NCBI GenBank assembly: GCA_050692985.1
Contig: JBOGVZ010000049.1
Coordinates: forward strand, 80,410 to 144,409
Length of the DNA: 64,000 nucleotides
Direction: 5' to 3'
Source: Actinomycetota bacterium
GTDB lineage: Bacteria; Actinomycetota; UBA4738; CALAEC01
Under the pieces are notes generated by a model. That model was not told the DNA's origin and did not search any database. It saw only the letters and a list, made by a program, of their open reading frames with translations. The position numbers were made by a program, and so were the translations under genes. Of this stretch, positions 17,369 through 60,786 are shown in pieces (the stretch's first letter is position 1; each line of letters begins with the position of its first letter).

Positions 17369-18001
17369 CTAGGAGGCACGGCGTCCGGCCAGGCCGGCCC
17401 CGGCCAGGACCACGGCCAGGGCGGCCAGGACGACGGCCACGATCGCCAGCACGGTAGAGGCGCCGGCACCGGATCCCAGGTCCTGCGCCTGGATGTCCTG
17501 CCGGAGCGCCTGGATGCGGGAGTCGATCCGATCCAGCCTGGTGGCCAGCTCCCCGGCGGTGGGGTCCCGGGCCGGGAACTGCGCGTCCGCGGGGTTCTGG
17601 ACGTCGTCGAACGTCTCGCCCGAGGTGAACTCCTCGTCGAAGTCCCGACCGGCCAGCGCGCCGGTGATGAGGAACGTGTAGGTCCCCGGGCGGGTCGGGA
17701 TCAGGAACGCGTGGTACTCGCCGGGGCTGCCGAACGCGGGAAGGAGGGGCAGCGGCTCGGTCGACTCCGTGCTGTCGGGGTCGCCGAACAGCACCTGGAC
17801 CTCCAGGTCGGCCCCCCGGACGGGCCGGTTGCCCCGGACCGCCGTGAGCTGGACCGCGTTGGCGAAGCCGGCGAAGGCGGGCTCTTCGAGCCAGCCGACC
17901 TCAACCTCCAACGGCCCGACCTGCCGTTCCTCGTGGGCCCGGGCCGGGGTGAGCGTCAGCAGCAGGACCCCGGACGCGGCAACGACGACACCCCTCCACA
18001 C
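17369..18001 (-). CDS. ycnI: YcnI-like (DUF1775) copper-binding protein with C-terminal TM anchor
   Basis: Signal MWRGVVVAASGVLLLTLTPARA, then the mature protein starts HEERQVG (N-terminal His). It ends in a C-terminal hydrophobic anchor. It lies directly upstream of copCD, matching the ycnI-ycnJ arrangement. Confidence 0.65.
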   Translation of the reverse strand: MWRGVVVAASGVLLLTLTPARAHEERQVGPLEVEVGWLEEPAFAGFANAVQLTAVRGNRPVRGADLEVQVLFGDPDSTESTEPLPLLPAFGSPGEYHAFLIPTRPGTYTFLITGALAGRDFDEEFTSGETFDDVQNPADAQFPARDPTAGELATRLDRIDSRIQALRQDIQAQDLGSGAGASTVLAIVAVVLAALAVVLAGAGLAGRRAS

Positions 18002-40887: not shown

Positions 40888-41491
40888 CGGCTGCCGGGAC
40901 GGCGCCCTCGCGGAGGACCCGGGGTGGCGACCCGGTGAGGTCGACCACCGTGGAGGCCGTGTCCCCGGCCACCGAGGCATCCGCGCACAGGTAGACGGCC
41001 ACGGCCTCGCCCAGCGCCTCTCGGACGTCCCGGCACGTGGCGGGGGTCGGCTCACCGGAGCGGTTGGCGCTGGTGACCGCCAGCGGCCCGGTCCGCCGGA
41101 GGAGCCCCAGCGCGGTCTCGTGACCGGGAACCCGCACGCCCACCGTGTCCCGCTCGGCCCCCAGGTCCCACTCGCGGCTGGCCTCGGCACGGGGGAGGAC
41201 CAGCGTGACCGCGCCGGGCCAGAAGCGCTCGGCCAGGCCGCGGGCCCGCCGGTCGAAGACCGCCACCTCGGCGGCCTGGTCCATCCCGGCGGCCAGGACC
41301 GGCAGCGTCAGGCGCGGGGGGCGCTGCTTGGCCTCGAAGATCCGCGCGGTTGCGCCCGGCAGATCCGGCCGTCCGCCGACGCCGTACACCGTGTCGGTGG
41401 GGAACACCACCAGCCGTCCGTCCCCCACGGCCCGCTCGGCCGCGTCCAGGGCGGCCGTCGGATCTCGCCCGACGTCGAAGGCCTCACTCAC
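40868..41491 (-). CDS. tsaC: L-threonylcarbamoyladenylate synthase (TsaC/YrdC/Sua5 family)
   Basis: GTG start (GTGA overlap with the prmC stop). GRLVVFPTDTVYGVGG and SANRSGEP motifs. Confidence 0.8.
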   Translation of the reverse strand: MSEAFDVGRDPTAALDAAERAVGDGRLVVFPTDTVYGVGGRPDLPGATARIFEAKQRPPRLTLPVLAAGMDQAAEVAVFDRRARGLAERFWPGAVTLVLPRAEASREWDLGAERDTVGVRVPGHETALGLLRRTGPLAVTSANRSGEPTPATCRDVREALGEAVAVYLCADASVAGDTASTVVDLTGSPPRVLREGAVPAADVLAAL

Positions 41492-42330
41492 CGAGCCGCC
41501 CCCCGGGCCACGCGATCCCGCCCGGCGAGGTCCGGGAGCACCTCCACCTCGGTGAAGCGCTCCTCGAGGAGCCGGCGAGCCTCGCGGCCCTGCCGGTCGC
41601 CGATCTCCATCACCAGCCACCCCCCCGGCCGGAGCCACCCGGGCGACTCCTCGGCCAGGCGGCGGTGGATCTCGGTCCCTCCCACCAGGGCCTCGTACGG
41701 CTCGGCCCGGACCTCCGCCGGCAGGTCCTCGTACTCCTCCATCGTCACGTACGGCGGGTTGCTGACCACCAGGTCCACCCCACCCCGGAGCTCGTCCGGG
41801 ACCGGGGCGAACAGGTCGCCGCGGAGCACCTCGACCTTCAGCGCGTGCCGCGAGGCGTTGGCCCGGGCCACCGCCACGGCCTCGTCCGAGACGTCCGTGG
41901 CCACCACGCGGGCGTCCGGACGGCGGCGCTTCACGGCCAGGGCCACCGCACCGGTGCCCGTGCCCACATCGACCACGACGGGTTCCCGGCGCCCGTCCAC
42001 CGCCTCCAGGGCCCGCTCGACGACCACCTCCGTCTCCGGCCGGGGGACGAACACACCCGGGGCCACGCCCAGGACCAGGTCGAGGAACTGCTGCTCGCCG
42101 GTGAGGTACTGGAGCGGCACCCCGTGGCACCGCTGGCACAGGGCCCGGCCGAACAGCCGGGCGGTCCGCGTGTCGAGCCCCTCGGTGCGGGCGTACAGCC
42201 CGGCCCGGTCGGTGCCCAGGAAGTACATCAGCAGGGCTTCGGCCGTCTCCCGTGGCGACTCCACCCCGTGCCGCTCCAGGTACTCCGCCGCACGCGTGAC
42301 GACCTCGGCCGGCCTCATGACTGAGTTCAT
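41488..42330 (-). CDS. prmC: Release factor glutamine N5-methyltransferase
   Basis: VVDVGTGTGAVALA SAM motif and the NPPY catalytic motif (VVSNPPYV). Confidence 0.85.
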   Translation of the reverse strand: MNSVMRPAEVVTRAAEYLERHGVESPRETAEALLMYFLGTDRAGLYARTEGLDTRTARLFGRALCQRCHGVPLQYLTGEQQFLDLVLGVAPGVFVPRPETEVVVERALEAVDGRREPVVVDVGTGTGAVALAVKRRRPDARVVATDVSDEAVAVARANASRHALKVEVLRGDLFAPVPDELRGGVDLVVSNPPYVTMEEYEDLPAEVRAEPYEALVGGTEIHRRLAEESPGWLRPGGWLVMEIGDRQGREARRLLEERFTEVEVLPDLAGRDRVARGAAR

Positions 42331-42429
42331 TGTCGCTGACTCCGCGGGCGGGTGGCCTCCTCACTGGGAATCGAACCGATGTCGACGCCCCAGTAGATCG
42401 ACGGTCGGGCGATCCGGGGGTGGAGGAAC

Positions 42430-44088
42430 CTACGCGACCACCTTGAAGTAGGCCCACGGTGACCCGTCCTTCGCATGGTCCTCACCGTGGGAGAACCAGC
42501 CTCTGATGCGGAAGCTATAACCGCCAGCTGGATCGACGAGCTCGATGAATACCGAGCTCTTCTTCCCGAGCGTAGCCTTCAGCTTCCCGAGAGACTTCCA
42601 CTTGCCCGCGAAGCGCACCTCGAGTACCACGACGAGCTTGTTGCCCGCATGATTCGGGACGACCTTACCCTTATAGATCGGATCATCGCCTTCATCGTAC
42701 AGGTGGTATTTCGCTTGCTTTCCGTAGGCGCCGAGCAGCTTTCCCGTGGTAATTACCTTCACCCTCACGGTCCGCGAATTGCTCTCGGCGGGACGCCAAT
42801 CAGCCTCACCTGCCCACGTCGCTGTGTACTTGGTGTTCTTCGAGGGTGAAACCTTCACGGTGAGGTCACCGTCACCGTCAACGAGGCCCGAGGTGAGCAG
42901 GGTCTTCGTGCCATTGATCGGTTCCTTATAGATGGAGACCTTCTTGTTCGAGCTCTGGGCGAACGCATCGAGGTGTGCGGTCAGCTTGGCGGACTTCCCG
43001 AAGCCGATCGTGCCTTTCGACGTCGCGAGGGTCAGGGCGGTGATCTTGATCGCCGGTCCGTACAGCGAGTGGAAGTACGCATCTCCACCGTAGATGCTGG
43101 TCCCGGTCACGGCGAAGATTCGGGCTTCGTCCTCCGTGATCCCGACGCCCCTGGGGTAGAGGTAGGGCCCGGGAGTGCCATCGAAGTCCACCGATTCCGA
43201 TGGTGTGGGATCGCCGGCCGGAAACACATGCACGTCGGGCTCATAGATCCCATGAACCCCCCCCACCACGTGACTCGGCCCGACGGCGAGCGCATCCGGG
43301 TAGGGCGGCAGCGGATACGTGAACCCGGTGGGTTTGAGGTCGGACGCAGACAGCTGTCGGATCTCGTAGGGGGCGCTTGCCGTCACCAGGAGGCCCTGAC
43401 CGTCCGGCATCACGGCTACGTCCTGGATGTTGGTCATGTCGGAGGCCCAATTCTTGGCGACGAGCGCGGGCGGGTCGACGCTGATGTCGTAGCGGGAAAT
43501 GGAGCTGCCCGCCATGAACAGCGCGTCAGGGATGACCGGGCTCGAGGCGAACAGGCCGCATCCGAAGTCCCCTGTGTGCATCGTGACCACCTCGGTGGAG
43601 AGATCGACGGACGCCACTTGGGAACCGAAGGACCCACATGAATGCGCGAACCATAGGCGGCCGCCCCCGACCCCAAGCGTTCCCCAAGCCGTGACATCGA
43701 GTTCGATCGAACCGGTCTTCTCCAGCGTCACGGCGTCCACCTTGTAGATCTGATCGCGACCTTCGGCCACCGCATACAGCGTCTGGTCGATCAGGACCAT
43801 CCCCGCAGCACGGGGCACGTCCCCGACGGTGGCGGCGAGGGTCGCGTCGAAGTCCATGACGAGGATCTCCGAGGACCCAAGGCCGCCCGAGACGAACACG
43901 TGCCCGCCTTCCTCGTCGATCACGAGGTCGTAGAAATTCGCAAGGGGCAACTTCACGCCCACATCAGCGGATGCCTGAGCGGATGGCGTGACCTGTCCGA
44001 CCAGCGCTGTCAGTGTGGCGATCAACGCGACGGTGCCGATTGAGGCGCGAAGCGCCGAGGCTCCGGAATTGCTGGCCCGCAACATCAC
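42430..44088 (-). CDS. Secreted beta-propeller-like protein with Lys-rich C-terminal module, in a low-GC insert
   Basis: Signal MMLRASNSGASALRASIGTVALIATLTALVGQVTPSAQASA. YVTN/YncE-like repeats (HVFVSGG, LYAVAEGRDQIYKVD). Lys-rich C-terminus (KWKSLGKLKATLGKK...GYSFRIRGWFSHGEDHAKDGSPWAYFKVV). Codon usage is visibly more AT-rich than the flanking prmC/prfA. Confidence 0.6.
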   Translation of the reverse strand: MMLRASNSGASALRASIGTVALIATLTALVGQVTPSAQASADVGVKLPLANFYDLVIDEEGGHVFVSGGLGSSEILVMDFDATLAATVGDVPRAAGMVLIDQTLYAVAEGRDQIYKVDAVTLEKTGSIELDVTAWGTLGVGGGRLWFAHSCGSFGSQVASVDLSTEVVTMHTGDFGCGLFASSPVIPDALFMAGSSISRYDISVDPPALVAKNWASDMTNIQDVAVMPDGQGLLVTASAPYEIRQLSASDLKPTGFTYPLPPYPDALAVGPSHVVGGVHGIYEPDVHVFPAGDPTPSESVDFDGTPGPYLYPRGVGITEDEARIFAVTGTSIYGGDAYFHSLYGPAIKITALTLATSKGTIGFGKSAKLTAHLDAFAQSSNKKVSIYKEPINGTKTLLTSGLVDGDGDLTVKVSPSKNTKYTATWAGEADWRPAESNSRTVRVKVITTGKLLGAYGKQAKYHLYDEGDDPIYKGKVVPNHAGNKLVVVLEVRFAGKWKSLGKLKATLGKKSSVFIELVDPAGGYSFRIRGWFSHGEDHAKDGSPWAYFKVVA

Positions 44089-46799: not shown

Positions 46800-48752
46800 T
46801 CACCCTTCGATCTCCTCCCTGAAGTACGCGTCGACCGGGGTTCCCTCCGGCGTCGAGCCCTCCACCCGGAACGTCCACCGGCCCGCCCCGAGGTCCTCCT
46901 GGGCCACGAAGTGCCCCGGGGAGAGCACAACCGGGTCCAGCAGGAGCGGTGCCCCGGTTTCGGGAGCGGCCTCGAAACGGGCGACCTCTACCGGCTGCTC
47001 GGCCCCTTCTGGGGTGAGGAAGGTGAGGTGGACCTCGTTGGGGCCTTCCTTCCCCGGATCGACGAATCCCTGGATCGAGATCCCGTTCGGCAGCGCGATC
47101 GTGTAGATGGTGGGCTGGCCCTCCGCCTCGGAGACCGTGATGTCCTGGGGTGGGAGGCGGGTGCGGAGCCCGAGGTCGATCGTCCGGGAGTCCCCGCCCA
47201 GGAGGACCAACGCGTCGACCTCCCAGGAGCCGTCGACCGAGAGGTTGGGCCCCTCGGCTCGCCACGCTGCCTGCCCGACGCTCTCCAGGTCCAGCTCCGA
47301 GGGCGCGATGTCCGGCCGAGAGGGGAGGGAGAACGACAGACGAACGCCAGTCGCGTCCACGGGCTCTCCCTCGCCGTCCGTGACCCTCACGTCGAATCGA
47401 TTGACCCCCGCCGTGCCGGGGGTGGCGGTCAGCCGGACATGGAGCAATCCCGCGGGATCCGACCCCTCGGCCACCACGCGGGCGGGAGCAACCGGAGGGG
47501 GGGCCTGGGCCGGCGGGGGGAGACCGGCCATCAGGCCGGTGAGCCCGAAGACTCCCGCCCCGATGGCCAGCTCGGCGCCCACCGTGCGGCGGAGGGTCCC
47601 GAACAGCCGGCCGCGCGAGGAGATGCGGGGGACGATCCGGTACCGGTTGTAGGCGCCCAGGGCCAGCAGACCCAGGAACAGGGCGCTCTTGCCCACCACG
47701 GTCAGGCCGAAGCCCGTGTCGATCAGGCGATCCGGCTCCAGGCCCACCTGGTTCAGCGCGCGGAGGACCCCCGTCACGGCCACCACGGGGAGGGCCACCG
47801 TGGCCAGCGCGGAGAACCGGCGGACGGCACCGGAGCGTTCCTCGTCCGGCTCCCCCCTGATCCCCACCAGGAGCCACAGCAGCCCTCCCACCCAGGCCGC
47901 CACGCTGAGGATGTGGACCCACTGCACCCCGACGTGCAGGGGCGCGTTCTCCACGGCGCTGGCATGGCCGGCGAAGGCGTGGACCAGCATGGCGAGGGCG
48001 GCCGCCGCGGCGAGGATCGCGGCGATCCACCGGCGGGGCCGGAGCGCCGAGGCCGCGGTCGCCGGCAGGGCCAGCAGGACGACGGCGCCGCGCGCCACGA
48101 GGAGCCGGCCCCGCTCGGATCCCAGCAGCTCGGCCGCGGGGACGTCCACGGCGGCACGCTCGGCCAGGAACATGCCGAGGACGCCGAGGGCGGCCGCGGC
48201 CCAGGCGAGCCACAGCAACCCCGGCACCGGACTCCGTGCCCGGAAGACAAGGAGGCGCCCCAGGGCCCCGCCGAACAGCAACGCGAGCCCCCAGTAGAAG
48301 GCCCACCGGGATCCGACGGCCAGGGGGGTGGGACGCTCCTGGGTCGGGTAGGACCCCTTGGGCTCGGCGACAGGCTCCACCGCCTGGCCCACCCCGAAGG
48401 CGAACGACCCCGTGGTGACGTGACCGTCGGCCGTGGAGAGGACCCGCCAGCTCACCGTGTACGTGCCCCGGGACAACTCCGGCAGCGACACCCTGAGCCC
48501 GCGTGGCTGGCCGGCGACGCCCTCGAGGGGGCCGACCTCCACGGGGGCTCCGGTGGAGTCGAACACCCGGATCTGCGACAGCCCGTGATCGGGCGGCTCG
48601 GTGAACGTGATCACGATCTCCGGCGGGGCGGTGTCGAGCACATCGCCGTTGGCCGGGGAGGAGCTCTGCAGGAGCGCGTGGGCGTGGGCGGCCGGGCCGG
48701 TCATCACCAGCCCGGCCGCCGCCAGCCCGAGAACGACGAGCGCCCGCCGCAC
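46800..48752 (-). CDS. copCD: Fused CopC-CopD protein, second copy
   Basis: MRRALVVLGLAAAGLVMTGPAAHA-HALLQSSSPANGDVL. CopC domain (YTVSWRVLSTADGHVTTGSFAFGV), then CopD TM helices, then a C-terminal soluble domain. Same architecture as 15403-17352. Confidence 0.8.
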   Translation of the reverse strand: MRRALVVLGLAAAGLVMTGPAAHAHALLQSSSPANGDVLDTAPPEIVITFTEPPDHGLSQIRVFDSTGAPVEVGPLEGVAGQPRGLRVSLPELSRGTYTVSWRVLSTADGHVTTGSFAFGVGQAVEPVAEPKGSYPTQERPTPLAVGSRWAFYWGLALLFGGALGRLLVFRARSPVPGLLWLAWAAAALGVLGMFLAERAAVDVPAAELLGSERGRLLVARGAVVLLALPATAASALRPRRWIAAILAAAAALAMLVHAFAGHASAVENAPLHVGVQWVHILSVAAWVGGLLWLLVGIRGEPDEERSGAVRRFSALATVALPVVAVTGVLRALNQVGLEPDRLIDTGFGLTVVGKSALFLGLLALGAYNRYRIVPRISSRGRLFGTLRRTVGAELAIGAGVFGLTGLMAGLPPPAQAPPPVAPARVVAEGSDPAGLLHVRLTATPGTAGVNRFDVRVTDGEGEPVDATGVRLSFSLPSRPDIAPSELDLESVGQAAWRAEGPNLSVDGSWEVDALVLLGGDSRTIDLGLRTRLPPQDITVSEAEGQPTIYTIALPNGISIQGFVDPGKEGPNEVHLTFLTPEGAEQPVEVARFEAAPETGAPLLLDPVVLSPGHFVAQEDLGAGRWTFRVEGSTPEGTPVDAYFREEIEG

Positions 48753-51086: not shown

Positions 51087-52574
51087 TCAGTCCCGCATCG
51101 GGGCCTTGGCGATCTCCTTGAGGAACTGCTCGTTCGACTTCGTGGCCCGGATCTTGTCGATGAGCATCTCGATGGAGGCCCCGCTGTCGAGGGCGTGGAG
51201 CACCCGGCGGAGCCGCCACGTGAGAGCCAGCTCCTCGCTGGGCATGAGGCGCTCCTCCTTGCGGGTCCCCGAGGCCTCGATGTTGATGGCCGGGAAGATC
51301 CGCTTCTCGGAGAGCTGCCGGTCGAGCCGGAGCTCCATGTTCCCGGTGCCCTTGAACTCCTCGAAGATCACCTCGTCCATGCGCGACCCGGTCTCCACCA
51401 GGGCGCTGGCGATGATCGTCAGCGACCCGCCCTCCTCGATGTTTCGGGCCGCCCCGAAGAACCGCTTGGGCGGGTACAGCGCGGTGGAGTCCACGCCTCC
51501 CGACAGGATCTTCCCGGACGCGGGCGCTGCCAGGTTGTAGGCCCGGGCCAGCCGGGTGACCGAGTCGAGCAGGATGGCCACGTTCTGGCCGGACTCCACC
51601 AGCCGCTTGGCACGCTCCAGCACCAGCTCGGTGACCTGGATGTGCTGGTCGGCCGGCTTGTCGAACGTGGAGTACACGACCTCGGCGGCCTCCACGGTCC
51701 GCTGCCAGTCCGTGACCTCCTCGGGACGCTCGTCCACCAGCAGGACCATCACGTGGGTCTTCGAGTCGGCGGTGATGATCCCGTTGGCGATCTGCTTGAG
51801 GACCGTGGTCTTGCCGGCCTTGGGCGGCGAGACCACCATCCCTCGCTGCCCCTTCCCGATGGGGGCCACCAGGTCGATGATCCGCTCGGTCACCGCGGTC
51901 GGTCCGCTCTCCAGGCGGAACCGCTCCTCCGGGAACAGGGGGGTGAGCTTCTCGAACTGGGGGCGCTCGCGGGCCTCATCCGGGCTCATCCCGTTGACGG
52001 TGTCGATGCGCAGCAGCGCGAAGTACTTCTCGCTGTCCTTGGGGTGGCGCACCGCGCCGGTGACCTCGTCACCCTTGCGCAGCGCGAACCGGCGGATCTG
52101 CGACAGCGAGACGTAGACGTCCTGGGCGCTGGGCAGGTATCCGCCGGTGCGGAGGAAGCCGTACCCCTCCGGGAGGATGTCGAGGATGCCGGTGTGCACC
52201 GGCGCCTCGGCCAGCTCCTCCTCGGTGGCCTCGCGGGGTCCCCGCTCACGCCGGCGATCCCGTCCCCGGCGCCCGCGACCGTCCCGGCCGTCGGGCCGGC
52301 GGTCCCTGGGCGGGGCCTGCGTTCGGACCTGCCCGCCACCGCCCTCGGAGCCCTGGCGAGCCTCGCCGGAGCCCTGGGCGGCCCGGGAGGCCTCCCCGCC
52401 GTCTCCGGCGGACCGGCGGGCCTCCCCGTCGTCCGAGCGGGCCACGATGGCGTCGATGAGGTCACCCTTCTTCAGCCGCTGGTGCCCCTCGACGCCCAGC
52501 CCCGAGGCGATCTCCTGGAGCTCGGGCAGGACCTTCTGCTCGAGCTTGGATCGATCCACGGTTCGAGATTCCAC
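51087..52574 (-). CDS. rho: Transcription termination factor Rho (with Arg/Gly/Asp-rich N-terminal insertion)
   Basis: N-terminal Rho_N ([35 protein letters not shown]), RNA-binding CSD, and a RecA-type ATPase (PPKAGKTT). A ~80-aa RG/RD-rich insert separates the N-terminal domains. Confidence 0.95.
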
Positions 52575-52575
52575 G

Positions 52576-53241
52576 TTACGCTCCTTCCTTACCGAGCTTC
52601 TTCTTCAGCTCACCCCAGTCCGCCAGGAACCTCTCGAGGCCCGCGTCGGTCAAGGGGTGCTTCACCAGCTTCGAGAACACGTCGTACGGCATGGTGGCAA
52701 TGTCAGCGCCGGTCAGGGCCGCCTCGACCACGTGCATCGGATGGCGGAGCGATGCGGCCAAGACCTGGGTCTCGTAGCCCTGGACCCGGTAGATGTCGCA
52801 GATCTGCCGGAGGGCGTGCATCCCGTCCGCGGCCGCATCGTCGATGCGACCCAGGAACGGAGACACGATGTACGCGCCGATCTCCGCAGCAAGGATAGCC
52901 TGTGCCGGCGAGAACGTCAGCGTCACGTTGATCTTGATCCCGTCGCCGACCAGCCGCTTGCCGCACTGGAGACCGTCGGGGGTCATGGGAACCTTGACCA
53001 CGGCGTTCGGTCCCAGCGAGGCCAGGTACTTCCCTTCCTCGTACATCGCCTCGGCCTGTGGCTCGGTGGTCTCCAGGGACACGTCGCCCTCGACCTCGTC
53101 CAGGACCTCCTTCCACACCCGCTCCGGCTCGAGCGCTTCCTTGAAGATGAGGGAGGGGTTCGTGGTCACGCCCGACAGGACGCCCCACCGGTTGATCTCC
53201 CGGATCTCCTCGATGTTCGCCGTGTCCAGGAACAACCTCAC
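52576..53241 (-). CDS. Fructose-6-phosphate aldolase/transaldolase (TalC/Fsa subfamily)
   Basis: GTG start. [13 protein letters not shown]...GVTTNPSLI...VKVPMT (Schiff-base Lys region). ~221 aa, which is the short Fsa-type length. Confidence 0.8.
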
Positions 53242-54212
53242 CGCTTCCTCCCCCCTTCGAGCTCCAGCACCTGTTCGCGGTCGGCGCCTCCCCGGGCACG
53301 GACGCGAGCGGTGGCCCGCTCCACCACGAGGTCGATGATGGCCGTGATCGCCTGGTCCAGGTTGTACGAGGCCACCACGGGCCAGTCGTGGGACAGGGCC
53401 TGGCTCTTGATGTACTTCTGCACCTTCCGGATGTTGTCGAAGTTGTCCAGGTAGCGGTCGAAGGGACGGGCCGCCGAGTCCGCTGACCGGGCCTGGAAGT
53501 GGCTGCGGTGCAGCTCCTCGTCCTCCACGGTCACCACCACCGGCACGGCCACGACCCGCTCGGTGAACGCCAGCACGTCGAGGAACCCCGGGACGATGTG
53601 TGCGCCCTCGATGATCACGCTGATCCCCTCGACGGCCGAGCGCTCGATCAGGGCCCGGACGCCCACGGCCACCGCGTGGGTCTGCTCGCGGAATCCCACG
53701 ATCACCTGGTCCGCCGCCCGGGCCGGCGGCTCCCGCAGCGCCGTGTCCGCATCGAACGACGACGTGTACAGGGTGGGCATCAGCTCCCGGGAGAACAGCG
53801 CCCGCATGACTTCCCGGACCGCATCGGTGGGGATCACCCGGACCACGCCCAGGCGGGCGGCGATCTGCGTGGCCATCGTGGACTTCCCCACGCCGGTAGA
53901 CCCGCCGATGAGGATCACCAGGGGCACGTCGAGCGCGGCCACCTCCTGCCACCGCATGAAGTTCTTGGCGTAGCGCTCGCCGGCGATGTCGTCGAGGACC
54001 CGCACCGTCAGCGCCCTCAGCTCCTCGGTGGTCACCGAGCTGAGCCCCCGGTCCACGAGCACGTCCTCGATGCGCTCGGCCACCTGGTAGGCGCGGTACG
54101 GGTTCAGGCCGGTCACCGAGACCTGCGAGGCCATCAGCCCCTTCGAGTACGGAAGGCCGGGTTCTCCGTCCGACACGATGATGTGGGTGTTGCGCTTCGT
54201 CTTCTTCTTCAT
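53238..54212 (-). CDS. 2-phosphoglycerate kinase (archaeal-type, P-loop)
   Basis: 324 aa. P-loop LILIGGSTGVGKSTMATQIA, with the N-terminal region preceding it as in methanogen 2PGK. Its ATG overlaps the stop of the cyclic-2,3-diphosphoglycerate synthetase gene. Confidence 0.6.
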   Translation of the reverse strand: MKKKTKRNTHIIVSDGEPGLPYSKGLMASQVSVTGLNPYRAYQVAERIEDVLVDRGLSSVTTEELRALTVRVLDDIAGERYAKNFMRWQEVAALDVPLVILIGGSTGVGKSTMATQIAARLGVVRVIPTDAVREVMRALFSRELMPTLYTSSFDADTALREPPARAADQVIVGFREQTHAVAVGVRALIERSAVEGISVIIEGAHIVPGFLDVLAFTERVVAVPVVVTVEDEELHRSHFQARSADSAARPFDRYLDNFDNIRKVQKYIKSQALSHDWPVVASYNLDQAITAIIDLVVERATARVRARGGADREQVLELEGGRKR

Positions 54213-55546
54213 CTCGCTCCCGCGCGCTCGACCGCCAGCCGAGCCGTGTCCAGCAGCACCTCCGACAGCTCGCCGTCACCGTCCAGCGTCTCGGCCCGGT
54301 TGTCGGCGAACACCACCTCGGCGCCCCGCGCGACGGCCCGGTCGGCGGCCACGTCCACCGCGGCCGCCTTGAGCTCGGTCACCAGCACGTCGAAGTCGGG
54401 GGCCGCCTCGAGGTCCTCGGCCAGCCCCGCCCGGTCGGCCAGGCGGTGGCTCGCCCCGACCACCGTGCATCCGAACCCTCGTTCCAGGGAAGCCACGAGG
54501 TCTGGGAGGCCGGCCTGGGGCGCCGTGGTCGTGAAGAACACCTTCTTCCCCCCGACTTCGCCCAGTGGCACGGGACGGAAATCCGTGATGACGATCCGCG
54601 CGTCTGGACGTAGCCTTCGGACGTGGGATACCAGATCGGAAAGATCCTGCGGCCCGCGTTGAGGGCCACCTCCCATTGTAAAGATGACGGCGTCGGATAG
54701 CAATACCCTGAACGGTCCCAGGTACCCCGCCAGGTGCTCCTGCGGCGCCGAGGCCGGGCACACCAGCACACCCGCATCCCAGGGGATGGGGGGCACCGCC
54801 GCGCCGCTCCCCTCCAGCAGGACCAGCCCGGCACCCCGTTCCTCGGCCACCGCGGCGGCCTCGCGGACGTTCGACACGAACGGCCGCCCCGCCAGGCCCC
54901 CCCCGCACCGACGGGCCCCCACGGTCGTGACCCCGGTGGTCAGCGCGTCCTCCAAGTAGTCGCTGGCCGCGTGCTCGCCGGCCCGGACCAGGTCCACCAG
55001 GCGCTCGAGGTCCACCGAGCCCGGGTCGGCCACCTGCGGGGCGGGCGGACCGCCCCGGCCCATGGCCACGACCACCGGGCGCATCCCCGCCCGGTCGGCC
55101 ACCCGGGCGGCCTCCCCGGCGATGGCGGTCTTCCCCGTTCGCTTGCCGGTCCCGATCACCGCCAGCGTGGGCGTGGACAGCGGGGGCCCGGTCACCGGCG
55201 GCTCCAAGGAGAAGTCCGGCCCCACGTAGCGGAGGCCGGCCGACAGGGCCACCGCGGCGACCAGCATCCGCTCCCGGTAGCCGAGCACCGGCTCGTCCGA
55301 GAGGTCCAGGACCACCTCCGGCCGGTGGGCCACGATGGCCTTCACCAGCCCCGCCGCCAGATCGTCGCCCGCGACCTCCACGGGGACCGGACCGAAGTCC
55401 AGGTTGCCGCCGGCGTCGATCTTCTCCACCCCGCCCACGAACAGGCACGCCGCCGGCTCGTACCCGAGGGTGCGGGCGGCCGCCAGCCCCCACCTGGTGG
55501 TGGGTGGGTAGTGCTCGCCGTCCACGAGGACCAGGGCTCGGATCAT
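54209..55546 (-). CDS. Cyclic 2,3-diphosphoglycerate synthetase
   Basis: 445 aa. N-terminus MIRALVLVDGEHYPPTTRWGL and P-loop-like LAVIGTGKRTGKTAIAGE. Its length and pairing with 2PGK resemble the archaeal cyclic-2,3-diphosphoglycerate synthetase. Confidence 0.6.
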   Translation of the reverse strand: MIRALVLVDGEHYPPTTRWGLAAARTLGYEPAACLFVGGVEKIDAGGNLDFGPVPVEVAGDDLAAGLVKAIVAHRPEVVLDLSDEPVLGYRERMLVAAVALSAGLRYVGPDFSLEPPVTGPPLSTPTLAVIGTGKRTGKTAIAGEAARVADRAGMRPVVVAMGRGGPPAPQVADPGSVDLERLVDLVRAGEHAASDYLEDALTTGVTTVGARRCGGGLAGRPFVSNVREAAAVAEERGAGLVLLEGSGAAVPPIPWDAGVLVCPASAPQEHLAGYLGPFRVLLSDAVIFTMGGGPQRGPQDLSDLVSHVRRLRPDARIVITDFRPVPLGEVGGKKVFFTTTAPQAGLPDLVASLERGFGCTVVGASHRLADRAGLAEDLEAAPDFDVLVTELKAAAVDVAADRAVARGAEVVFADNRAETLDGDGELSEVLLDTARLAVERAGAR

Positions 55547-55573: not shown

Positions 55574-56374
55574 CTACTCGGCCGGAAGCGGCGCTTCCTG
55601 CCGCGGCTCCAGCGTCAGGGTCTCCAGCTCTCGGTGGTACTGGGTGCCGCTGGCGACCGAGAAGTGGGCGTTGAGGGTGGACCCTCCGAAGGGGAACTTG
55701 CGGAAGATCTTCACCTCGTCCCCCTCGATCTCCAGGACGTTGTAGCAGGGTTTGGTGTGGCCGCGCAGCCGCAACGACGCGCAGGTCCCGGCGTTGGCCA
55801 CGTAGAGGTCCTCCAGCCGCCACACGTAGGGCACGTGCTTGTGCCCCGTCAGGACCACGGTGACCCCGGTGCCGATGAGGACCTCCAGGAGGTCGCCGGC
55901 ATCGTAGACGATGTTGCGCTCCCGGCCGGTTCCCGGCACGGGGAGCAGGTGGTGGTGCAGGACGAAGATCTTGAGCTCGGCCGGAACCGAGAACTGCTCC
56001 TTGATCCAGCCGTACCGCTCCCGCCCGATCTGGCCGTGGTCGAGGTCTGGCTCGCTGGAGTCCGCTCCCACGATCCGAACCCCCCGGACGTCGACCGACC
56101 AGTGCCTGGGGCCGATCAGCTCCTCGAAGTGCACGTAGCCCACGTTTCGGGCGTCGTGGTTGCCCGGCACCGAGTACACCGGGGCCTTGATCCGCTCCAG
56201 GTACGCCACCGCGGTCTTGAACTCCTGCCGGTAGCCGAAGTTCGTGAAGTCCCCGGTGCACAGGACGGCGTCGGGCTGGAGCTCGTTCAGCTCCACGATC
56301 ACCCGGTTCATCAGGTTCGGCACGAAGTACGGGGAGCCGATGTGCGGGTCCGAGATGTGAGCGATGGTGGCCAT
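55574..56374 (-). CDS. Metallophosphoesterase
   Basis: MATIAHISDPHIG, CTGDFT, VPGNHD and GHKHV calcineurin-like motifs. The upstream part of the ORF is frame overlap. Confidence 0.7.
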   Translation of the reverse strand: MATIAHISDPHIGSPYFVPNLMNRVIVELNELQPDAVLCTGDFTNFGYRQEFKTAVAYLERIKAPVYSVPGNHDARNVGYVHFEELIGPRHWSVDVRGVRIVGADSSEPDLDHGQIGRERYGWIKEQFSVPAELKIFVLHHHLLPVPGTGRERNIVYDAGDLLEVLIGTGVTVVLTGHKHVPYVWRLEDLYVANAGTCASLRLRGHTKPCYNVLEIEGDEVKIFRKFPFGGSTLNAHFSVASGTQYHRELETLTLEPRQEAPLPAE

Positions 56375-56441
56375 CGTCGGGCCCAGTCTACCCAGCCGCG
56401 CACTTCGGGGACCGAGCGGGGGCCGTGAGAGGATTGGCGGC

Positions 56442-57614
56442 GTGAACCTCCTGGACCTCCTGATCGTCCTCCTGGTGGCGATCTCCATCTATACGGGGTT
56501 CCGCCGGGGAGCGGCCCTCCAGCTGGTGACGTACACGGGGCTGATCCTGGGGCTGGCGGCCGGAGCGCTGCTGGCCCCGGTGCTGGCCCGGACGGCCACC
56601 GAGCCGTTCGCCCAGGCCACCATCGCCCTGGTGACGCTGCTGGTGCTGGCGGCCCTGGGGGACGCCATCGGCTGGGCCCTGGGGACCCGGGCGTGGCTGG
56701 CGGCCCGCCGAAGCGCGATCAGCCCGGTCGACCAGGGCGCCGGATCCCTGGTGGCCGGCCTGGCCGCGTTGCTGGCGGTGTGGTTCCTGGCGTTCAACCT
56801 GGTCCAGGGCCCGTTCCCGGTGGTCTCCAAGCAGATCCGGGGCTCGGCCATCGTGCGGGGGATCGACAACGTCCTCCCCCGGCCGCCCTCTGTGTTCTCC
56901 CAGGTGCGCCAGTTCCTCAACCGGTTCGGGTTCCCCGAGGTGTTCGCCAACCTCCCCCCGGCCCCGGCCGGTCCCGTGCAGGGCCCGTCGGAGGCCGAGG
57001 CGAACGCGGCCTTCCAGGCCGCGGCCGCCAGCACGTTCAAGGTGGTGGGCCAGGCCTGCGACCGTATCCAGGAGGGCAGCGGATTCCTGATCGAGCCGAA
57101 CTACGTGGTGACGAACGCCCACGTGGTGGCGGGCGTGGGCTCGCCCCAGGTCCAGCCCCAGGGCGGAGCGACGCTACCCGCCACCACCGTGCTGTTCGAT
57201 GACGACCTCGACCTGGCGGTGCTCCGCATCGAGACCAGCCCATCCGACGACCTGGACTTCATCGAGGGCACCGCCGGCCGGGGGGCCACCGGTGCCGTGG
57301 TCGGCTACCCGGGCGGAGGCGGCCTCACCGGGGTGGATGCCGCGGTCCGCCAGCGACTGGTGGCCCGGGGCTACGACATCTACAACGACGACCAGGTCCG
57401 GCGGCGGGTCTACGAGCTCCAGGCCGTGGTCCGGCCGGGGAACTCGGGCGGCCCGTTCGTGACCACCGACGGCCTGGTGGCCGGCGTTGTCTTCGCGGCG
57501 TCGACCACCGACGGGAACATCGGCTACGCGCTCACCTCCGACGAGGTGCTGCCGATGGTCCAGCAGGCCCTGGGGCGAACCGAGACAGTGGGCACCGGCC
57601 CCTGCATCCGGTGA
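56442..57614 (+). CDS. Membrane-anchored CvpA-domain/trypsin-like serine protease (MarP-like)
   Basis: GTG start after RBS gagagga. An N-terminal 4-TM CvpA-like domain is followed by a chymotrypsin-fold domain (TNAHVV His, DLAVLRI Asp, GNSGGP Ser). Confidence 0.7.
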   Translation: MNLLDLLIVLLVAISIYTGFRRGAALQLVTYTGLILGLAAGALLAPVLARTATEPFAQATIALVTLLVLAALGDAIGWALGTRAWLAARRSAISPVDQGAGSLVAGLAALLAVWFLAFNLVQGPFPVVSKQIRGSAIVRGIDNVLPRPPSVFSQVRQFLNRFGFPEVFANLPPAPAGPVQGPSEAEANAAFQAAAASTFKVVGQACDRIQEGSGFLIEPNYVVTNAHVVAGVGSPQVQPQGGATLPATTVLFDDDLDLAVLRIETSPSDDLDFIEGTAGRGATGAVVGYPGGGGLTGVDAAVRQRLVARGYDIYNDDQVRRRVYELQAVVRPGNSGGPFVTTDGLVAGVVFAASTTDGNIGYALTSDEVLPMVQQALGRTETVGTGPCIR

Positions 57615-57644: not shown

Positions 57645-59834
57645 CTACTCCTCCATCACGACGCGGACGTCGCCCTCCTTCTCCTCCAGGGAGAACGAGG
57701 TGATACCCGCCTCCCGCCGGAACTGGAGCGTGAGGACGCTGTCCCCCACCCGGAGGTTCCGCAGCTCCGCCCGGTTCAGCCACACGGGCAGGTGCGGCTG
57801 GTTCACCCGCAGGAGGTTCTCGTGGGCCACCGCGGAGATGCCCAGCATGGCCTGGAGCAGCAGCACCGGCACACCGGCGGCCCACGCCTGCGGCGAGCAG
57901 GCCACCGGGTACTCGACAGGTGGGCTGGGGGTCCGCCGGACGAACCCGCAGAAGAGCTCGGGGAGCCGCATGTAGTCGCTGAAGGTGGCCGCGTCGAACA
58001 GGGCGGTACCGATGCGGTTGATGGTCTCCACGAACTTGAACCGCTTCATCCCCGACGCGATCAGGGCGTTGTCGTGCGGCCATACCGTGCCGTTGTGGTA
58101 GCTCATGGGGTTGTAGGCTGCGGCGGCCTTGCTCATCGTCCGGACCCCCCACCCGGAGAACATCTCGGGCGAGAGCAGCCGGCGGGTCACCAGCTCGGCG
58201 TGGTCCGGGTCCACCACGTCGCAGTACAGCAGGTGCCCGGGGTTCGACACGATCGTGCGGACCTGGCGCTTGTCCCCGTCCAGGGCCATGGCGAAGTACT
58301 GCTCGTCCTCCATCCAGAACGCCTCGTTGACCGCCCTGCGCAGGGCCGCCGCCTCCTCGCGCAGGCGGACGGCGCGCTCCCGGTCACCGAGCGCCTCGAA
58401 CACGAAGGCCATCCGGGACTTGGCCATGTACACGTACCCCTGCACCTCGACGAGCGCGATGGGCGGCTCGGCCAGGGTGCCGTCGGCGTGGACCACGGAG
58501 TCCTCGGAATCCTTCCACCCCTGGTTCACCAGCCCCCGCGGGGAGCGAGATCGGTACTCGACGAACCCGTCGCCGTCGAGGTCCCCGTACTCGTCGATCC
58601 ACCGCAGCGCCGCGTTGGCCGCCGGGAGCAGCTCCTTGACGAATCCCAGGTCGTTCGTCCACCGGAAGTACTGGGCCAGCACGATGAGGAACCAGGGCGT
58701 GGCGTCCACCGACCCGTAGTACGGCGTGTGGGGCAGGTACCCGGAGGCCGCCAGCTCCCCGCGGCGGATCTCGTGCAGGATCTTCCCGGGCTCCTCGTCG
58801 CGCCAGTCGTCCACCACGGTTCCCTGGCGGGCCGCCAGCACCCGCAGGCTGTCCCGGGCCGTCTTCGGTGACAGGAGCAGCGTCTGGTGCGAAGAGATCA
58901 GGGCGTCCCGGCCGAACACCGCCACGTACCACGGGATCCCCGCCGCGGGAAGCGATCCTCCCTCCACCGGCGTGTACAGGGCCCGGAGGTCGCGGAGCCC
59001 CCTGGCCACCCACTTGTTGAACAGCGCGTTGTCGGTGCGGATCTGGGTGCACTCGCTCTCCCAGTCCTCGTACGAGTGCCGCAGGGTGCTGACGGTGGCG
59101 TCGAACTCTCCCGGTGGGAGCTCCTCGTCTCCCACCCGCGGCTCCACGACGATCGGCAGGACCCTCGTCCGCCCCCCGCCCAGCCGCACGTCGAAGGCCA
59201 CGGACACCACGTCCCCTCGCACGGAGGTGGCCACGGGGTCGGCCCCCATCACGATCCTCGTGGTCCGCCGGGCCCCGTCGTGGCCGACGTAGGCGAACTC
59301 CACCTCCCGGCCCTCGGCCCGGGGTGGCTCGAAGGTGCCCCGGACCTCCCGCACCAGGCCCCGGACCTCGAAGATGTCGGCGAAATCGGCCCCGAACGTC
59401 AGCTCCAGGCGGAACCGCACGGGGGACGCGTTGTAGTTCTTGATCCGGATCCGGTCGTACAGGCGGTGCCGGATCGTGCGGATCCGCCGGATGCTCAGGG
59501 AGTGCTGGGGAATGGCCCCGTTCCCGGCGTCGGCCAGCGGGGGGTTCGTCAGGTCCACGTGGGAGATGTAGGCGCGCTCCGCCGAGGACGACAGCAGGAT
59601 CGGCTCCACCCCGGAGACCCGCATGCGGTAGTGCGACAGGAACCGGGTGTCGCGATGGTAGAACCCCAGCCCGAGCTCGTGGCGATCGCTGATGTTGCCC
59701 TCGACATCGGAGTAGAGGAAGGATTCGCCTTCCTTGATCGTGAGGACCTTGCTGGGGAGATCGCTGGTCACCACGGGGACTCGAGGGATCCTCACGGCGT
59801 CCCCGGAGCCGGGGGCGTCGGGCTCGGTCACCAC
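57645..59834 (-). CDS. Amylo-alpha-1,6-glucosidase / glycogen debranching enzyme-like protein (GDE_N + GDE_C)
   Basis: 729 aa. The C-terminal (alpha/alpha)6 barrel motifs (GWGVRTMS...YHNGTVWPHDN) are typical of the bacterial/archaeal GDE family. Confidence 0.7.
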   Translation of the reverse strand: MVTEPDAPGSGDAVRIPRVPVVTSDLPSKVLTIKEGESFLYSDVEGNISDRHELGLGFYHRDTRFLSHYRMRVSGVEPILLSSSAERAYISHVDLTNPPLADAGNGAIPQHSLSIRRIRTIRHRLYDRIRIKNYNASPVRFRLELTFGADFADIFEVRGLVREVRGTFEPPRAEGREVEFAYVGHDGARRTTRIVMGADPVATSVRGDVVSVAFDVRLGGGRTRVLPIVVEPRVGDEELPPGEFDATVSTLRHSYEDWESECTQIRTDNALFNKWVARGLRDLRALYTPVEGGSLPAAGIPWYVAVFGRDALISSHQTLLLSPKTARDSLRVLAARQGTVVDDWRDEEPGKILHEIRRGELAASGYLPHTPYYGSVDATPWFLIVLAQYFRWTNDLGFVKELLPAANAALRWIDEYGDLDGDGFVEYRSRSPRGLVNQGWKDSEDSVVHADGTLAEPPIALVEVQGYVYMAKSRMAFVFEALGDRERAVRLREEAAALRRAVNEAFWMEDEQYFAMALDGDKRQVRTIVSNPGHLLYCDVVDPDHAELVTRRLLSPEMFSGWGVRTMSKAAAAYNPMSYHNGTVWPHDNALIASGMKRFKFVETINRIGTALFDAATFSDYMRLPELFCGFVRRTPSPPVEYPVACSPQAWAAGVPVLLLQAMLGISAVAHENLLRVNQPHLPVWLNRAELRNLRVGDSVLTLQFRREAGITSFSLEEKEGDVRVVMEE

Positions 59835-59922: not shown

Positions 59923-60786
59923 TCAGGCCACGTGGGCCCCGGTGGCGGAGACGCCCGGCCGGAGCACCCGCCACCCCGGCCCCAACGCCGGCAGCGGCGA
60001 GGCGTCCACCTCGAAGGCCAGCAGCGACGGCCCCGAGCCGGCCACGCACACGGGGATGTCCGCCTGGCGGAGGTCCTCGAACAGGGCCCGGCTGGACGGG
60101 GCCAGCGGCAGCCGCCGGGACTGGTGGAGCCGGTCCTCGAGGGCCTCGGCCAGCAGGTCGGGGCGAGCCGTCAGGGCCAGCACCGCCAGCGCCGCCCGGC
60201 CGGCGTTGAAGGCCGCGTCGCTCAGCGGCACCTGCCGGGGCAGCACCCGGCGGGCGTCCTCGGTGGCCACCCGCTCCTCCTCGGGCACCAGCAGCACGGG
60301 CCGAAGCGCGGGGTGCGTCTCCAGGCGCTCCGCTCGCCACCCCTGTCGGGACAGGTACGCCAGCACCAGGCCGCCCCGGAGGCACGCCGACACGTTGTCG
60401 GGATGGCCCTCGATGTCGATGGCCACCTCGAGGAGGCGGTAGGGGTCGAGCTGCGTGCCCAGCAGCCGGTCCGCCAGCACCAGTCCCGACACCACCGCGG
60501 CCGCCGACGAGCCCAGGCCCCGCTGAAGCGGGATGCGGTTCACGCACCGCAGAGCCATCTGGGGCAGCGGCCGCCCGGTCTCCCGGGCCAGGTAGGCCAT
60601 GGCCCGGAAGACCACGTTCGAGCCGTCCTCCGGCAGCTCCCCCCGGCCCTGGCCCTCCACCACGACCGCGGCCTCCGCGCCGGTGTCGGCGGTGACCTCG
60701 TTGGTTAGGTCCATGGCCAGGCCCAGCGCGTCGAAGCCGGGGCCGAGGTTCGCCACCGTGGCCGGCGCGGTGACCGAGACCCGCAC
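59923..60786 (-). CDS. thrB: Homoserine kinase
   Basis: GTG start. ATVANLGPGFDALG and the GHMP motif PLQRGLGSSAAAVVSG. Confidence 0.85.
   Translation of the reverse strand: MRVSVTAPATVANLGPGFDALGLAMDLTNEVTADTGAEAAVVVEGQGRGELPEDGSNVVFRAMAYLARETGRPLPQMALRCVNRIPLQRGLGSSAAAVVSGLVLADRLLGTQLDPYRLLEVAIDIEGHPDNVSACLRGGLVLAYLSRQGWRAERLETHPALRPVLLVPEEERVATEDARRVLPRQVPLSDAAFNAGRAALAVLALTARPDLLAEALEDRLHQSRRLPLAPSSRALFEDLRQADIPVCVAGSGPSLLAFEVDASPLPALGPGWRVLRPGVSATGAHVA

Follow-up and report, generated by a model that had tools for sequence, protein, structure and literature searches.

Do bacteria carry the pathway to cyclic 2,3-diphosphoglycerate (cDPG), a compound that has been called exclusive to hyperthermophilic methanogens (De Rose 2023, PMC10690619)? 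The question is raised by two overlapping genes in a 64,000-nucleotide (64-kb) stretch of an Actinomycetota metagenome-assembled genome (MAG), here called the window. The original prediction, made from the sequence alone, took them for an archaeal-type 2-phosphoglycerate kinase (2PGK) and a cDPG synthetase (cDPGS, gene cpgS), and proposed synthesis of a compatible solute in a possibly thermophilic host.

Organization of the locus

The overlapping pair, predicted at 324 and 445 aa, was placed correctly; both genes are on the minus strand (Table 1). The overlap is 4 nt (ATGA), the 2PGK start lying over the cpgS stop. At the next junction 2PGK and fsa share a GTGA overlap (translational coupling), and rho begins with a GTG 1 nt past the fsa stop, with a GGAAGGAG Shine-Dalgarno sequence in front; both fsa and rho are read as coupled to the module in translation. 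The GC content by codon position, 0.69/0.43/0.95 in the 324-aa ORF and 0.79/0.52/0.91 in the 445-aa ORF, is that of real genes in a window of 70% GC.

The four neighbours named in the prediction were all recovered by family scans: i) rho (TIGR00767, 623.9 bits, cut-off 509); ii) the Fsa-type aldolase (TIGR00875, 265.1 bits, cut-off 245.95; Pfam TAL_FSA, E 2.2e-54); iii) the metallophosphoesterase (MPE; Pfam Metallophos, E 1.1e-20); and iv) thrB (TIGR00191, 200.3 bits, cut-off 168.25), in which the match covers the mechanical ORF only from residue 106 on. Between MPE and thrB are genes for a MarP-type protease, on the plus strand, and for a GDE-like glycoside hydrolase; thrC and hom are found upstream of thrB. 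One contig carries the whole set within a hom-thrC-thrB-rho-prfA-atp backbone typical of actinobacteria.

Table 1. Features of the locus, in window coordinates
Feature	Position	Strand	Remarks
rho	51087..52574	-	495 aa, with an Arg/Gly/Asp-rich insertion
Fsa/TalC-type short aldolase or transaldolase (fsa)	52576..53241 (about)	-	221 aa
2-Phosphoglycerate kinase homologue (2PGK)	53238..54212	-	324 aa, ATG start; degenerate N-terminal ATP-cone and P-loop kinase
cpgS, cyclic 2,3-diphosphoglycerate synthetase orthologue	54209..55546	-	445 aa, ATG start
Calcineurin-like metallophosphoesterase (MPE)	55574..56374	-	266 aa from M39; mechanical ORF to 56488
Divergent short intergenic region, MPE/marP	56375..56440	.	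From reading of the sequence
thrB	59923..60786 (about)	-	Upstream boundary of the hom-thrC-thrB ... rho backbone that holds the module

The divergent intergenic region is the likely start of the module transcript. A -10-like TAGACT at 56390-56385 on the minus strand stands 10 nt ahead of the phosphoesterase ATG; a scan with the sigma-70 consensus gave no site in 56375..56440. Promoter and terminator consensus scans near the module returned only one internal promoter-like site and terminators at chance level, and neither Rfam nor tRNA scans gave a hit anywhere in the window.

The two enzymes and their archaeal relatives

By sequence, ligand residues and predicted fold, the 445-aa protein is an orthologue, over its full length, of the characterised archaeal cDPGS, as had been proposed from its likeness to the methanogen enzyme. 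A phmmer search of the PDB aligned its residues 5-440 with residues 8-454 of the Methanothermus fervidus enzyme (8ORK, apo; 8ORU, with ADP/Mg/2,3-DPG; PMC10690619) at E 1.8e-93, and 9SXB was matched at E 4e-90. The two proteins are of the same length class (460 aa in M. fervidus) and share a two-domain fold, including the N-terminal domain particular to cDPGS. They differ in that identity is 37% (37-39% to archaeal cDPGS in general) and that the window host is a bacterium of about 70% GC. An AF2 model (pLDDT 93.4, pTM 0.91) superimposed on 8ORU with TM scores of 0.95/0.92 and an rmsd of 2.0 A; the next fold found by Foldseek was LpxK, with a TM of only 0.38. The P-loop had been quoted as GTGKTA; it reads GTGKRTGKTA, which is nevertheless the same motif as the GTGKRIGKTA of M. 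fervidus.

Eleven ligand residues of 8ORU have been listed (De Rose 2023, PMC10690619), and ten are identical in the window protein: E41, K42, K135, R136, K139, T140, D196, T341, E391 and K393, corresponding in that order to M. fervidus E45, K46, K145, R146, K149, T150, D208, T353, E404 and K406. None of the ten varies among 67 bacterial and 8 archaeal sequences, and they are almost invariant when the family is sampled by 70 representatives at 50% identity clustering. Bacterial and archaeal sequences share 57 invariant alignment columns. Among the ten are the contacts to 2,3-diphosphoglycerate (2,3-DPG), namely K145 and R146 together with E45 and K46, which the partner subunit contributes (PMC10690619). 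The exception is E305, an adenosine contact in M. fervidus (PMC10690619), which is not conserved in bacteria: the window protein has Gly, and its relatives have Ser, Ala, Gly or Thr.

The same 445-aa protein gave zero matches in the copies of Pfam-A and NCBIfam that were used; these lack a cDPGS model, and the empty result reflects this rather than absent homology. An identical protein in NCBI is already named "2,3-diphosphoglycerate synthetase" and carries a precomputed PF27272 CpgS_N label.

The arginine synthetase ArcE (TK2200 of Thermococcus kodakarensis) belongs, as a remote relative, to the P-loop superfamily of cDPGS; it is widespread in bacteria and was earlier unannotated or mis-annotated; its similarity to cDPGS has been described as low (PMC11032458). 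The ArcE gene is linked to arcB and arcC, whereas the window gene is linked to 2PGK, and neither arcB (OTC) nor arcC (carbamate kinase) was present among the scanned proteins of the window or in the related loci examined. Identity as ArcE was rejected; the window protein, 37-39% identical to cDPGS, most probably stands on the cDPGS side.

The assignment of the 324-aa protein as an archaeal-type 2PGK is supported. Its best family is NCBIfam NF003259, "2-phosphoglycerate kinase" (E 2e-91, model positions 4-298 of 306), which beats all non-2PGK models by more than 170 bits, but the score of 306.6 bits is below the equivalog cut-off of 343, so that the protein is classed here as a homologue that is probably orthologous, short of a certified equivalog. 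Like the archaeal kinases (NF003259/PRK04220; COG2074), it aligns over the whole model and combines an N-terminal ATP-cone, an allosteric nucleotide-sensing domain, with a C-terminal P-loop kinase (Walker A GGSTGVGKST; AAA_33-type Pfam matches). The ATP-cone is degenerate: the match is weak in the window protein (E 0.0061) and clear in the orthologue at locus L082 (1.8e-10). The distant bacterial partners likewise have 2-phosphoglycerate kinase as their best family. A PDB search with the 324-aa protein gave generic P-loop noise only, there being no 2PGK structure for comparison. That the protein phosphorylates 2-phosphoglycerate to 2,3-DPG is probable from context, its gene being always adjacent to that of a 2,3-DPG-consuming enzyme. 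Bacterial COG2074 members have been noted before, in Thermus and Deinococcus, in an account that does not discuss a cDPGS partner (PMC1274311).

The similarities of both proteins (E 1.8e-93 for the 445-aa protein, 2e-91 for the 324-aa protein) far exceed chance, and the best homologues of the pair are archaeal cDPGS and 2PGK, not unrelated P-loop kinases.

A module with a metallophosphoesterase

The two bacterial genes are part of a conserved module, metallophosphoesterase-cpgS-2PGK(-fsa-rho). The family name of the synthetase is known from NCBI annotation; the module with MPE is new here. cpgS and 2PGK are neighbours in each of the 65 close loci that have sufficient sequence, and their stop and start codons often overlap; the same adjacency is seen in seven of seven distant bacterial contexts in which cpgS is 41-43% identical. 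A metagenome set centred on MPE comprised 80 loci, 64 of them informative; cpgS lies just downstream of the MPE subfamily in every one of the 64 (directly in 62, and about 460-500 nt away in 2), and the cpgS-2PGK adjacency holds there too. fsa separates 2PGK from rho in all close relatives whose loci have enough sequence; some distant loci (L078, L082, L125, L133, L137) lack it. rho is found downstream of the module at virtually every related locus, and across very divergent lineages the module stays linked to rho or to a Rho-like gene. A DHPS gene seen in loci L077-L082 was considered as a general partner and rejected as lineage-specific, being absent from 80 of 80 MPE-centred loci. In the archaeal loci examined, by contrast, cpgS has neither 2PGK nor MPE nearby and is followed by a RimB-like gene; the operon logic is thus not transferable from archaea.

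Of the module members MPE is conserved best: it is 58-64% identical between lineages in which cpgS is 41-43% identical. Its five metal-binding motifs (D9-P-H11, G41-D42, G71-N-H-D74, H140-H141-H142 and G177-H-K-H180; that is, DPH, GD, GNHD, HHH and GHKH) are all invariant in the MPE alignment (A1). The closest solved relatives are the class III phosphodiesterases Rv0805 of Mycobacterium tuberculosis and GpdQ of Enterobacter aerogenes (E about 1e-13), which share the calcineurin-like fold and the five motifs, but the match is weak and partial. The subfamily has strongly conserved motifs of its own (DSSEPDL, HHHLLPVPGTGRERN and LRLRGHTRPCYN), and its hallmark is cpgS just downstream. The best named model, PRK11148 CpdA, scored 40.8 bits, far below its cut-off of 225. 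On reading of the MPE sequence no hydrophobic membrane-spanning stretch is apparent, and the protein looks soluble.

Orthologues of the cDPG pathway and the upstream MPE gene thus probably make up a three-gene route from 2-phosphoglycerate through 2,3-DPG to cDPG, with MPE as the candidate hydrolase. Orthology, ligand-residue conservation, fold and gene linkage are what the data show; the chemistry in the window organism, as we infer it, would begin with phosphorylation of 2-phosphoglycerate at O3 by the ATP-cone/P-loop kinase to give 2,3-DPG. The synthetase would then move the gamma-phosphate of ATP onto the 2-phosphate; attack by the 3-phosphate with departure of Pi would close the cyclic pyrophosphate, cDPG, as has been proposed for cDPGS of M. 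fervidus. MPE would most likely hydrolyse cDPG to 2,3-DPG, or dephosphorylate 2,3-DPG, and this step would make cDPG a regulated pool and not a dead-end product. Co-transcription of a hydrolase with both synthetic enzymes would amount to a futile cycle unless regulated.

In Methanothermobacter, turnover of cDPG by a hydrolase and a role in carbon and phosphate storage are documented (Roberts 2005, PMC1224877). The M. thermautotrophicus hydrolase converts cDPG to 2,3-DPG, the reaction proposed for MPE; it is known as an activity, membrane-bound and inhibited by K+ and Pi, and the membrane association counts against the soluble-looking MPE (PMC1224877). No paper naming a gene for the cDPG hydrolase was found in the searchable literature, subscription-only papers lying outside it. 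MPE is a candidate cDPG or 2,3-DPG phosphohydrolase for a degradation that has been known biochemically for decades and for which no assigned gene was found.

Alternatives, distribution and role

The same enzymes and product may serve a different end. Instead of a bulk solute, the module, co-expressed with Rho, would maintain 2,3-DPG and cDPG at low, dynamic levels, to buffer energy or phosphate in the manner of a phosphagen or to act as regulatory metabolites. This is conceivable, if doubtful. Consistent with it are the linkage of MPE to cpgS without exception and its conservation, the highest in the module, the nucleotide-sensing ATP-cone on 2PGK, and a link to rho, or to a Rho-like gene, that persists over great divergence. 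Furthermore, the M. fervidus cDPGS is reversible, cDPG, ADP and Pi yielding ATP, and cDPG is a carbon and phosphate store in Methanothermobacter (PMC1224877). The case is purely contextual, however, and the rho linkage may be inherited gene order only; the high intracellular cDPG of methanogens indicates that the same enzymes can sustain a bulk solute.

It is unlikely that the bacterial proteins are neofunctionalised and act on another substrate, for example by cyclising or activating a different phospho-acid. The 2PGK superfamily includes kinases for other substrates, such as mevalonate-3-phosphate 5-kinase, and the window kinase falls below its equivalog cut-off; the synthetase has only 37-39% identity to archaeal cDPGS, E305 is not conserved, and the MPE partner is absent from archaeal loci. 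However, the four 2,3-DPG contacts and the 57 columns are invariant across bacteria and archaea, the cDPGS-specific N-terminal domain is kept with a full-length TM of 0.95, and the constant neighbour is exactly the enzyme family that makes the cDPGS substrate. ArcE does provide unrelated chemistry in the wider cDPGS superfamily, evidence that new reactions can arise on this fold, but its similarity to cDPGS is low (PMC11032458), and no arcB, arcC or mevalonate-pathway genes occur among the scanned proteins of the window.

That the genes have no function in this bacterium, being relics or archaeal DNA binned by mistake, is effectively refuted: although mis-binning is possible in principle in a MAG and one related locus (L060) is labelled Planctomycetaceae, the ORFs are intact with the host GC3 signature (0.91-0.95), they share one contig with the actinobacterial backbone, and more than 130 independent contigs conserve order and sequence with invariant catalytic residues.

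The cDPG pathway remains the preferred reading, and the suggestion that its host is a thermophile was not supported. Relatives number thousands in Actinomycetota MAGs, mostly from soil as judged from isolate names (SMAG, MFD, FBaNitSoil, Centralia); only two bin names, HR12 and KatS3mg013, are hot-spring-like, and a crude estimate from proteome composition is about 42 C. Close cpgS orthologues also occur in Methanobacterium and Methanobrevibacter, which are mostly mesophilic, so that presence of the gene does not track hyperthermophily even among archaea. No indication of thermophily emerged. The pair is no rarity of one genome; it is widespread among uncultured Actinomycetota and has already been annotated automatically. 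A neighbour-joining tree of the 50%-identity representatives is star-like, with a low-GC archaeal cluster and several high-GC clusters, and gives no direction of transfer.

These data suggest that bacteria also make cDPG and probably turn it over; no report of bacterial cDPG or cDPGS was found in the searchable literature (subscription-only papers lie outside it). In soil Actinomycetota a stress solute or a phosphate, carbon or energy reserve is a more likely role than thermoprotection. More tentatively, many uncultured, mostly mesophilic soil Actinomycetota might run the full cDPG cycle from one operon, MPE being the hydrolase gene and cDPG a widespread bacterial phosphate or energy reserve or desiccation solute, possibly co-expressed with Rho.

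Confirmation of the bacterial module would place cDPG in a phylum that is among the most abundant in soil, and detach it from thermophily. cDPG is pursued as an industrial extremolyte (PMC12136491), and the bacterial cDPGS and 2PGK, from hosts without signs of thermophily, may express more easily than the codon-optimised M. fervidus enzyme. Ancestral reconstructions of ammonia-oxidising archaea, for one, have taken the presence of cpgS as genomic evidence of a thermophilic lifestyle (PMC7554672), a practice that the distribution found here weakens.

The cpgS-2PGK locus and its products

Two overlapping ORFs, cpgS for a 445-aa cyclic 2,3-diphosphoglycerate (cDPG) synthetase (cDPGS) orthologue and 2PGK for a 324-aa 2-phosphoglycerate kinase homologue, were found on the minus strand at exactly the coordinates of the original prediction, and family searches confirmed the neighbors it named: rho, an Fsa-type aldolase gene (fsa), a metallophosphoesterase gene (MPE) and thrB. 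The window GC content is ~70%, and the GC3 of cpgS (0.91) and 2PGK (0.95) is the host coding signature. The gene order, hom-thrC-thrB ... rho ... prfA-prmC ... glyA ... atp operon, is typically actinobacterial; thus the block carrying the MPE-cpgS-2PGK module is set in a housekeeping backbone, between thrB and rho.

The cpgS stop overlaps the 2PGK start in ATGA, the 2PGK/fsa junction is GTGA, and the GTG start of rho, preceded by a GGAAGGAG Shine-Dalgarno sequence, lies 1 nt past the fsa stop; MPE and cpgS are separated by only 27 nt. At the sequence level, these junctions and the short gap are the signature of a single translationally coupled operon. The mechanical ORFs of MPE and the MarP-type protease overlap at their 5' ends (56364-56488), and the family alignments begin at residues 41 and 30, respectively. 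The true starts are probably M39 (56374) for MPE and a GTG near 56439 for MarP, which would leave a ~60-nt divergent intergenic region with a TAGACT -10-like box. About half of the related loci have the glycoside hydrolase gene between the module and thrB. Its MGH1-like domain is common to mannosylglycerate and glucosylglycerate hydrolases, and by this analogy a tie to glycerate-based solutes is conceivable.

Features of the window and of distant homologous loci (L0xx)
Feature	Location	Strand	Details
rho	51087..52574	minus	TIGR00767, 624 bits
Fsa/TalC-type aldolase, short (fsa)	~52576..53241	minus	TIGR00875, 265 bits, above cut-off
2PGK	53238..54212	minus	ORF, 324 aa
cpgS	54209..55546	minus	ORF, 445 aa
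Calcineurin-like metallophosphoesterase (MPE)	55574..56374/56488	minus	
MarP-type serine protease		plus	between MPE and thrB
GDE/MGH-like glycoside hydrolase	57645-59834	minus	729 aa; GDE_N_bis, MGH1-like, GDE_C domains
thrB			other side of MPE/MarP/glycoside hydrolase from rho
Divergent Rho-like ATPase	L077:8991-10406, L078:5501-6880, L079:8994-10382, L081:9010-10644, L082:8803-9879		after module
Pterin_bind (Pfam) gene	L077:4252-5196, L078:1563-2432, L079:4143-5084, L081:4275-5177, L082:4208-5137		upstream of MPE
Short-form cpgS loci	L076:6001-8249, L080:6001-8125		414-417 aa

The 445-aa protein had no match in the Pfam and NCBIfam copies searched, which include no cDPGS model. A phmmer search of all PDB chains returned only three significant entries, all of them cyclic 2,3-diphosphoglycerate synthetases by name: the Methanothermus fervidus structures 8ORU and 8ORK (residues 5-440 against 8-454, E 1.8e-93) and 9SXB (E 4e-90). 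In the M. fervidus enzyme 2,3-DPG, Mg2+ and ADP are bound by E45, K46, K145, R146, K149, T150, D208, E305, T353, E404 and K406, of which E45 and K46 are contributed by the partner subunit (PMC10690619). When the window protein was aligned with 8 archaeal sequences and 66 relatives from bacteria, all but E305 proved invariant, and 57 columns are invariant among 35 sequences spanning the bacterial and archaeal clades. Overall identity to the archaeal enzymes is 37-39%. An AlphaFold2 model (pLDDT 93.4) superimposes on ligand-bound 8ORU over the whole chain with a TM of 0.95 and an rmsd of 2.0 A; the second-best fold, LpxK, reaches a TM of only 0.38. The proposed likeness to the methanogen synthetase is thus upheld by full-length PDB match, ligand residues and fold alike, and the protein is, by homology and modeling, a cDPG synthetase orthologue. 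The P-loop motif is also present, but its letters had been misread as GTGKTA; the protein reads GTGKRTGKTA.

The reading of the 324-aa P-loop protein as an archaeal-type 2PGK fits its best NCBIfam family, NF003259 '2-phosphoglycerate kinase' (E 2e-91, model positions 4-298 of 306). Since its 306.6 bits do not reach the curated cut-off for equivalogs (343), it is filed as a homologue, not a certified equivalog; it is probably a 2PGK orthologue. The related mevalonate-3-phosphate 5-kinase model gives it just 69 bits. A degenerate ATP-cone makes up its first 95 residues (E 0.0061; 1.8e-10 in one orthologue). A PDB search found no solved 2PGK structure for comparison.

Distribution and gene linkage

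Both enzymes are bacterial members of known families and are already so labeled in databases. The presence of the cDPGS family in bacteria is evident from a simple BLAST search, and an identical 445-aa protein exists at NCBI as 'MAG: 2,3-diphosphoglycerate synthetase [Actinomycetota bacterium]'. In a homologue search 7944 of 8000 scored candidates were significant; the best 120 of these, labeled cDPG synthetase by JGI, are 66-100% identical and nearly all metagenomic or from Actinomycetota MAGs. In a database of 1.84 billion 50%-identity cluster representatives, the family accounts for 977 clusters at E<=1e-3, of which 224 reach E<=1e-30. The entire clade of the window protein forms one such cluster, and the amino-acid composition of many others is of the high-GC type. 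Searching with a distant member as query led to MAGs labeled Solirubrobacterales, Thermoleophilaceae and Phycisphaeraceae.

Scanning a single genome for each GTDB species gave 72 loci (45-74% identity), all from MAGs. Many isolate names suggest soil collections, among them Centralia, a coal-fire-heated soil site; two resemble hot-spring bins (HR12, KatS3mg013). The suggestion of a thermophilic actinobacterium gained no support from a crude IVYWREL estimate on 45 window proteins, ~42 C, which is inside the range of high-GC mesophiles. Methanobacterium and Methanobrevibacter, mostly mesophilic genera, carry cDPGS orthologues (P0125-P0240) that share 67-73% identity with that of M. fervidus; thus the gene does not track hyperthermophily even among archaea.

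The order thrB-(GDE, MarP)-MPE-cpgS-2PGK-fsa-rho is kept almost without exception in the 72 genome loci. Seven contexts from distant lineages, with identities to the window proteins of 41-43% for cpgS and 36-44% for 2PGK, all have these two genes side by side; in five, MPE also precedes the pair and a Rho-family gene follows. The distant MPEs are 58-64% identical to that of the window, making MPE the best-conserved member. In the reverse test MPE orthologues were aligned, a metagenome collection was scanned, and the loci counted were those with 600 nt or more of sequence following MPE: cpgS follows within 400 nt in 62 of 64, and at ~460-500 nt in the other two. Taken together, the genome, distant and MPE-centered counts identify MPE-cpgS-2PGK as a conserved bacterial module. 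Neither 2PGK nor MPE lies near cpgS of Methanothermobacter and M. fervidus, where a RimB-like (PF05618) gene follows (L073, L075).

The Rho-like ATPases of the five distant loci are divergent, scoring 227-313 bits against a TIGR00767 cut-off of 509 and sharing 36-43% identity with the true Rho of the window. The order of cDPG module followed by Rho-family gene therefore holds across very deep divergence. In four of these loci the stop of the Pterin_bind gene overlaps the MPE start by 4 nt or 1 nt. The L077 copy, the one scanned against NCBIfam, is a true dihydropteroate synthase, with 262 bits for TIGR01496 against a cut-off of 162.6. The gene is absent from all 80 MPE-centered metagenome loci and is thus a lineage-specific addition. 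The short-form cpgS genes, from a metagenome contig (L076) and a Thermoleophilaceae-labeled MAG (L080), have an overlapping 2PGK as sole partner, without phosphoesterase, fsa or rho, and lie amid polysaccharide-synthesis genes (Wzy_C, Polysacc_synt, acetyltransferases).

Predicted pathway and alternatives

Family identification of the pair from sequence is solid; cDPG chemistry in the uncultured organism is a prediction. Of the possible readings, the established two-step cDPG pathway has the best support (PMC12136491, PMC10690619). The kinase would convert 2-PG and ATP to 2,3-DPG; the synthetase would then phosphorylate the 2-phosphate from ATP, and the 3-phosphate would displace Pi, closing the cyclic pyrophosphate. 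All five metal-binding motifs are present in MPE, and among solved structures the phosphodiesterases Rv0805 and GpdQ are closest to it. Since cpgS and MPE are so strictly linked, MPE is the natural candidate for the degradative step, as a hydrolase that would take cDPG to 2,3-DPG, or 2,3-DPG to monophosphoglycerate. A cDPG-degrading activity was described in Methanothermobacter, where cDPG is regarded as storing carbon and phosphate (PMC1224877); the searchable literature yielded no gene for this activity. Co-transcription of synthesis and hydrolysis would imply regulation, for which the kinase ATP-cone is one possible handle.

The same linkage of a candidate hydrolase to cpgS, together with the reversibility of the M. 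fervidus cDPGS, lends some plausibility to a small regulated cDPG pool rather than a bulk solute; this tentative alternative changes the physiology, not the chemistry. Neofunctionalization toward another substrate is rather unlikely. It has a precedent in ArcE, a Thermococcus arginine synthetase distantly related to cDPGS, but that similarity is described as low (PMC11032458), and ArcE travels with arcB and arcC, neither of which was found among the window proteins scanned. Moreover, the 2,3-DPG-contacting residues are invariant in the bacterial proteins, and their conserved neighbor is precisely the 2,3-DPG-making enzyme. The ORFs are intact, show host codon usage, lie in an actinobacterial backbone and are conserved in >130 independent contigs, which rules out pseudogenes or a mis-binned fragment.

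The searchable literature yielded no account of cDPG or cDPGS in bacteria, and according to the 2023 structure paper cDPG is found in hyperthermophilic methanogens only (PMC10690619). COG2074 kinases of bacteria were noted in 2005, in Thermus and Deinococcus (PMC1274311). The bacterial system differs from the archaeal in its operon organization, in the strictly linked phosphoesterase, and in host and habitat, neither of which shows signs of thermophily.

Other genes of the window

A second calcineurin-like phosphoesterase (39961-41190, minus strand, 409 aa), unrelated to MPE, lies in the prmC-glyA region. Between prfA and prmC, a minus-strand gene (42430-44088) codes for a protein of 552 aa that begins with a signal-peptide-like segment and contains an Ig-like domain; GC in the bin 42001-44000 is 0.644 against ~0.71 overall, and the gene may be a recent insertion in the conserved backbone. 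Two CopC-CopD-FixH/YtkA fusion paralogues, for copper resistance or handling, are on the minus strand (15403-17469 and 46800-48752), and there is a cupredoxin gene at 12778-13197. RTX-repeat, Calx-beta and DUF11 proteins are predicted on the plus strand (9310-12747 and 34562-36463), the first two in a lower-GC stretch (0.65-0.69).
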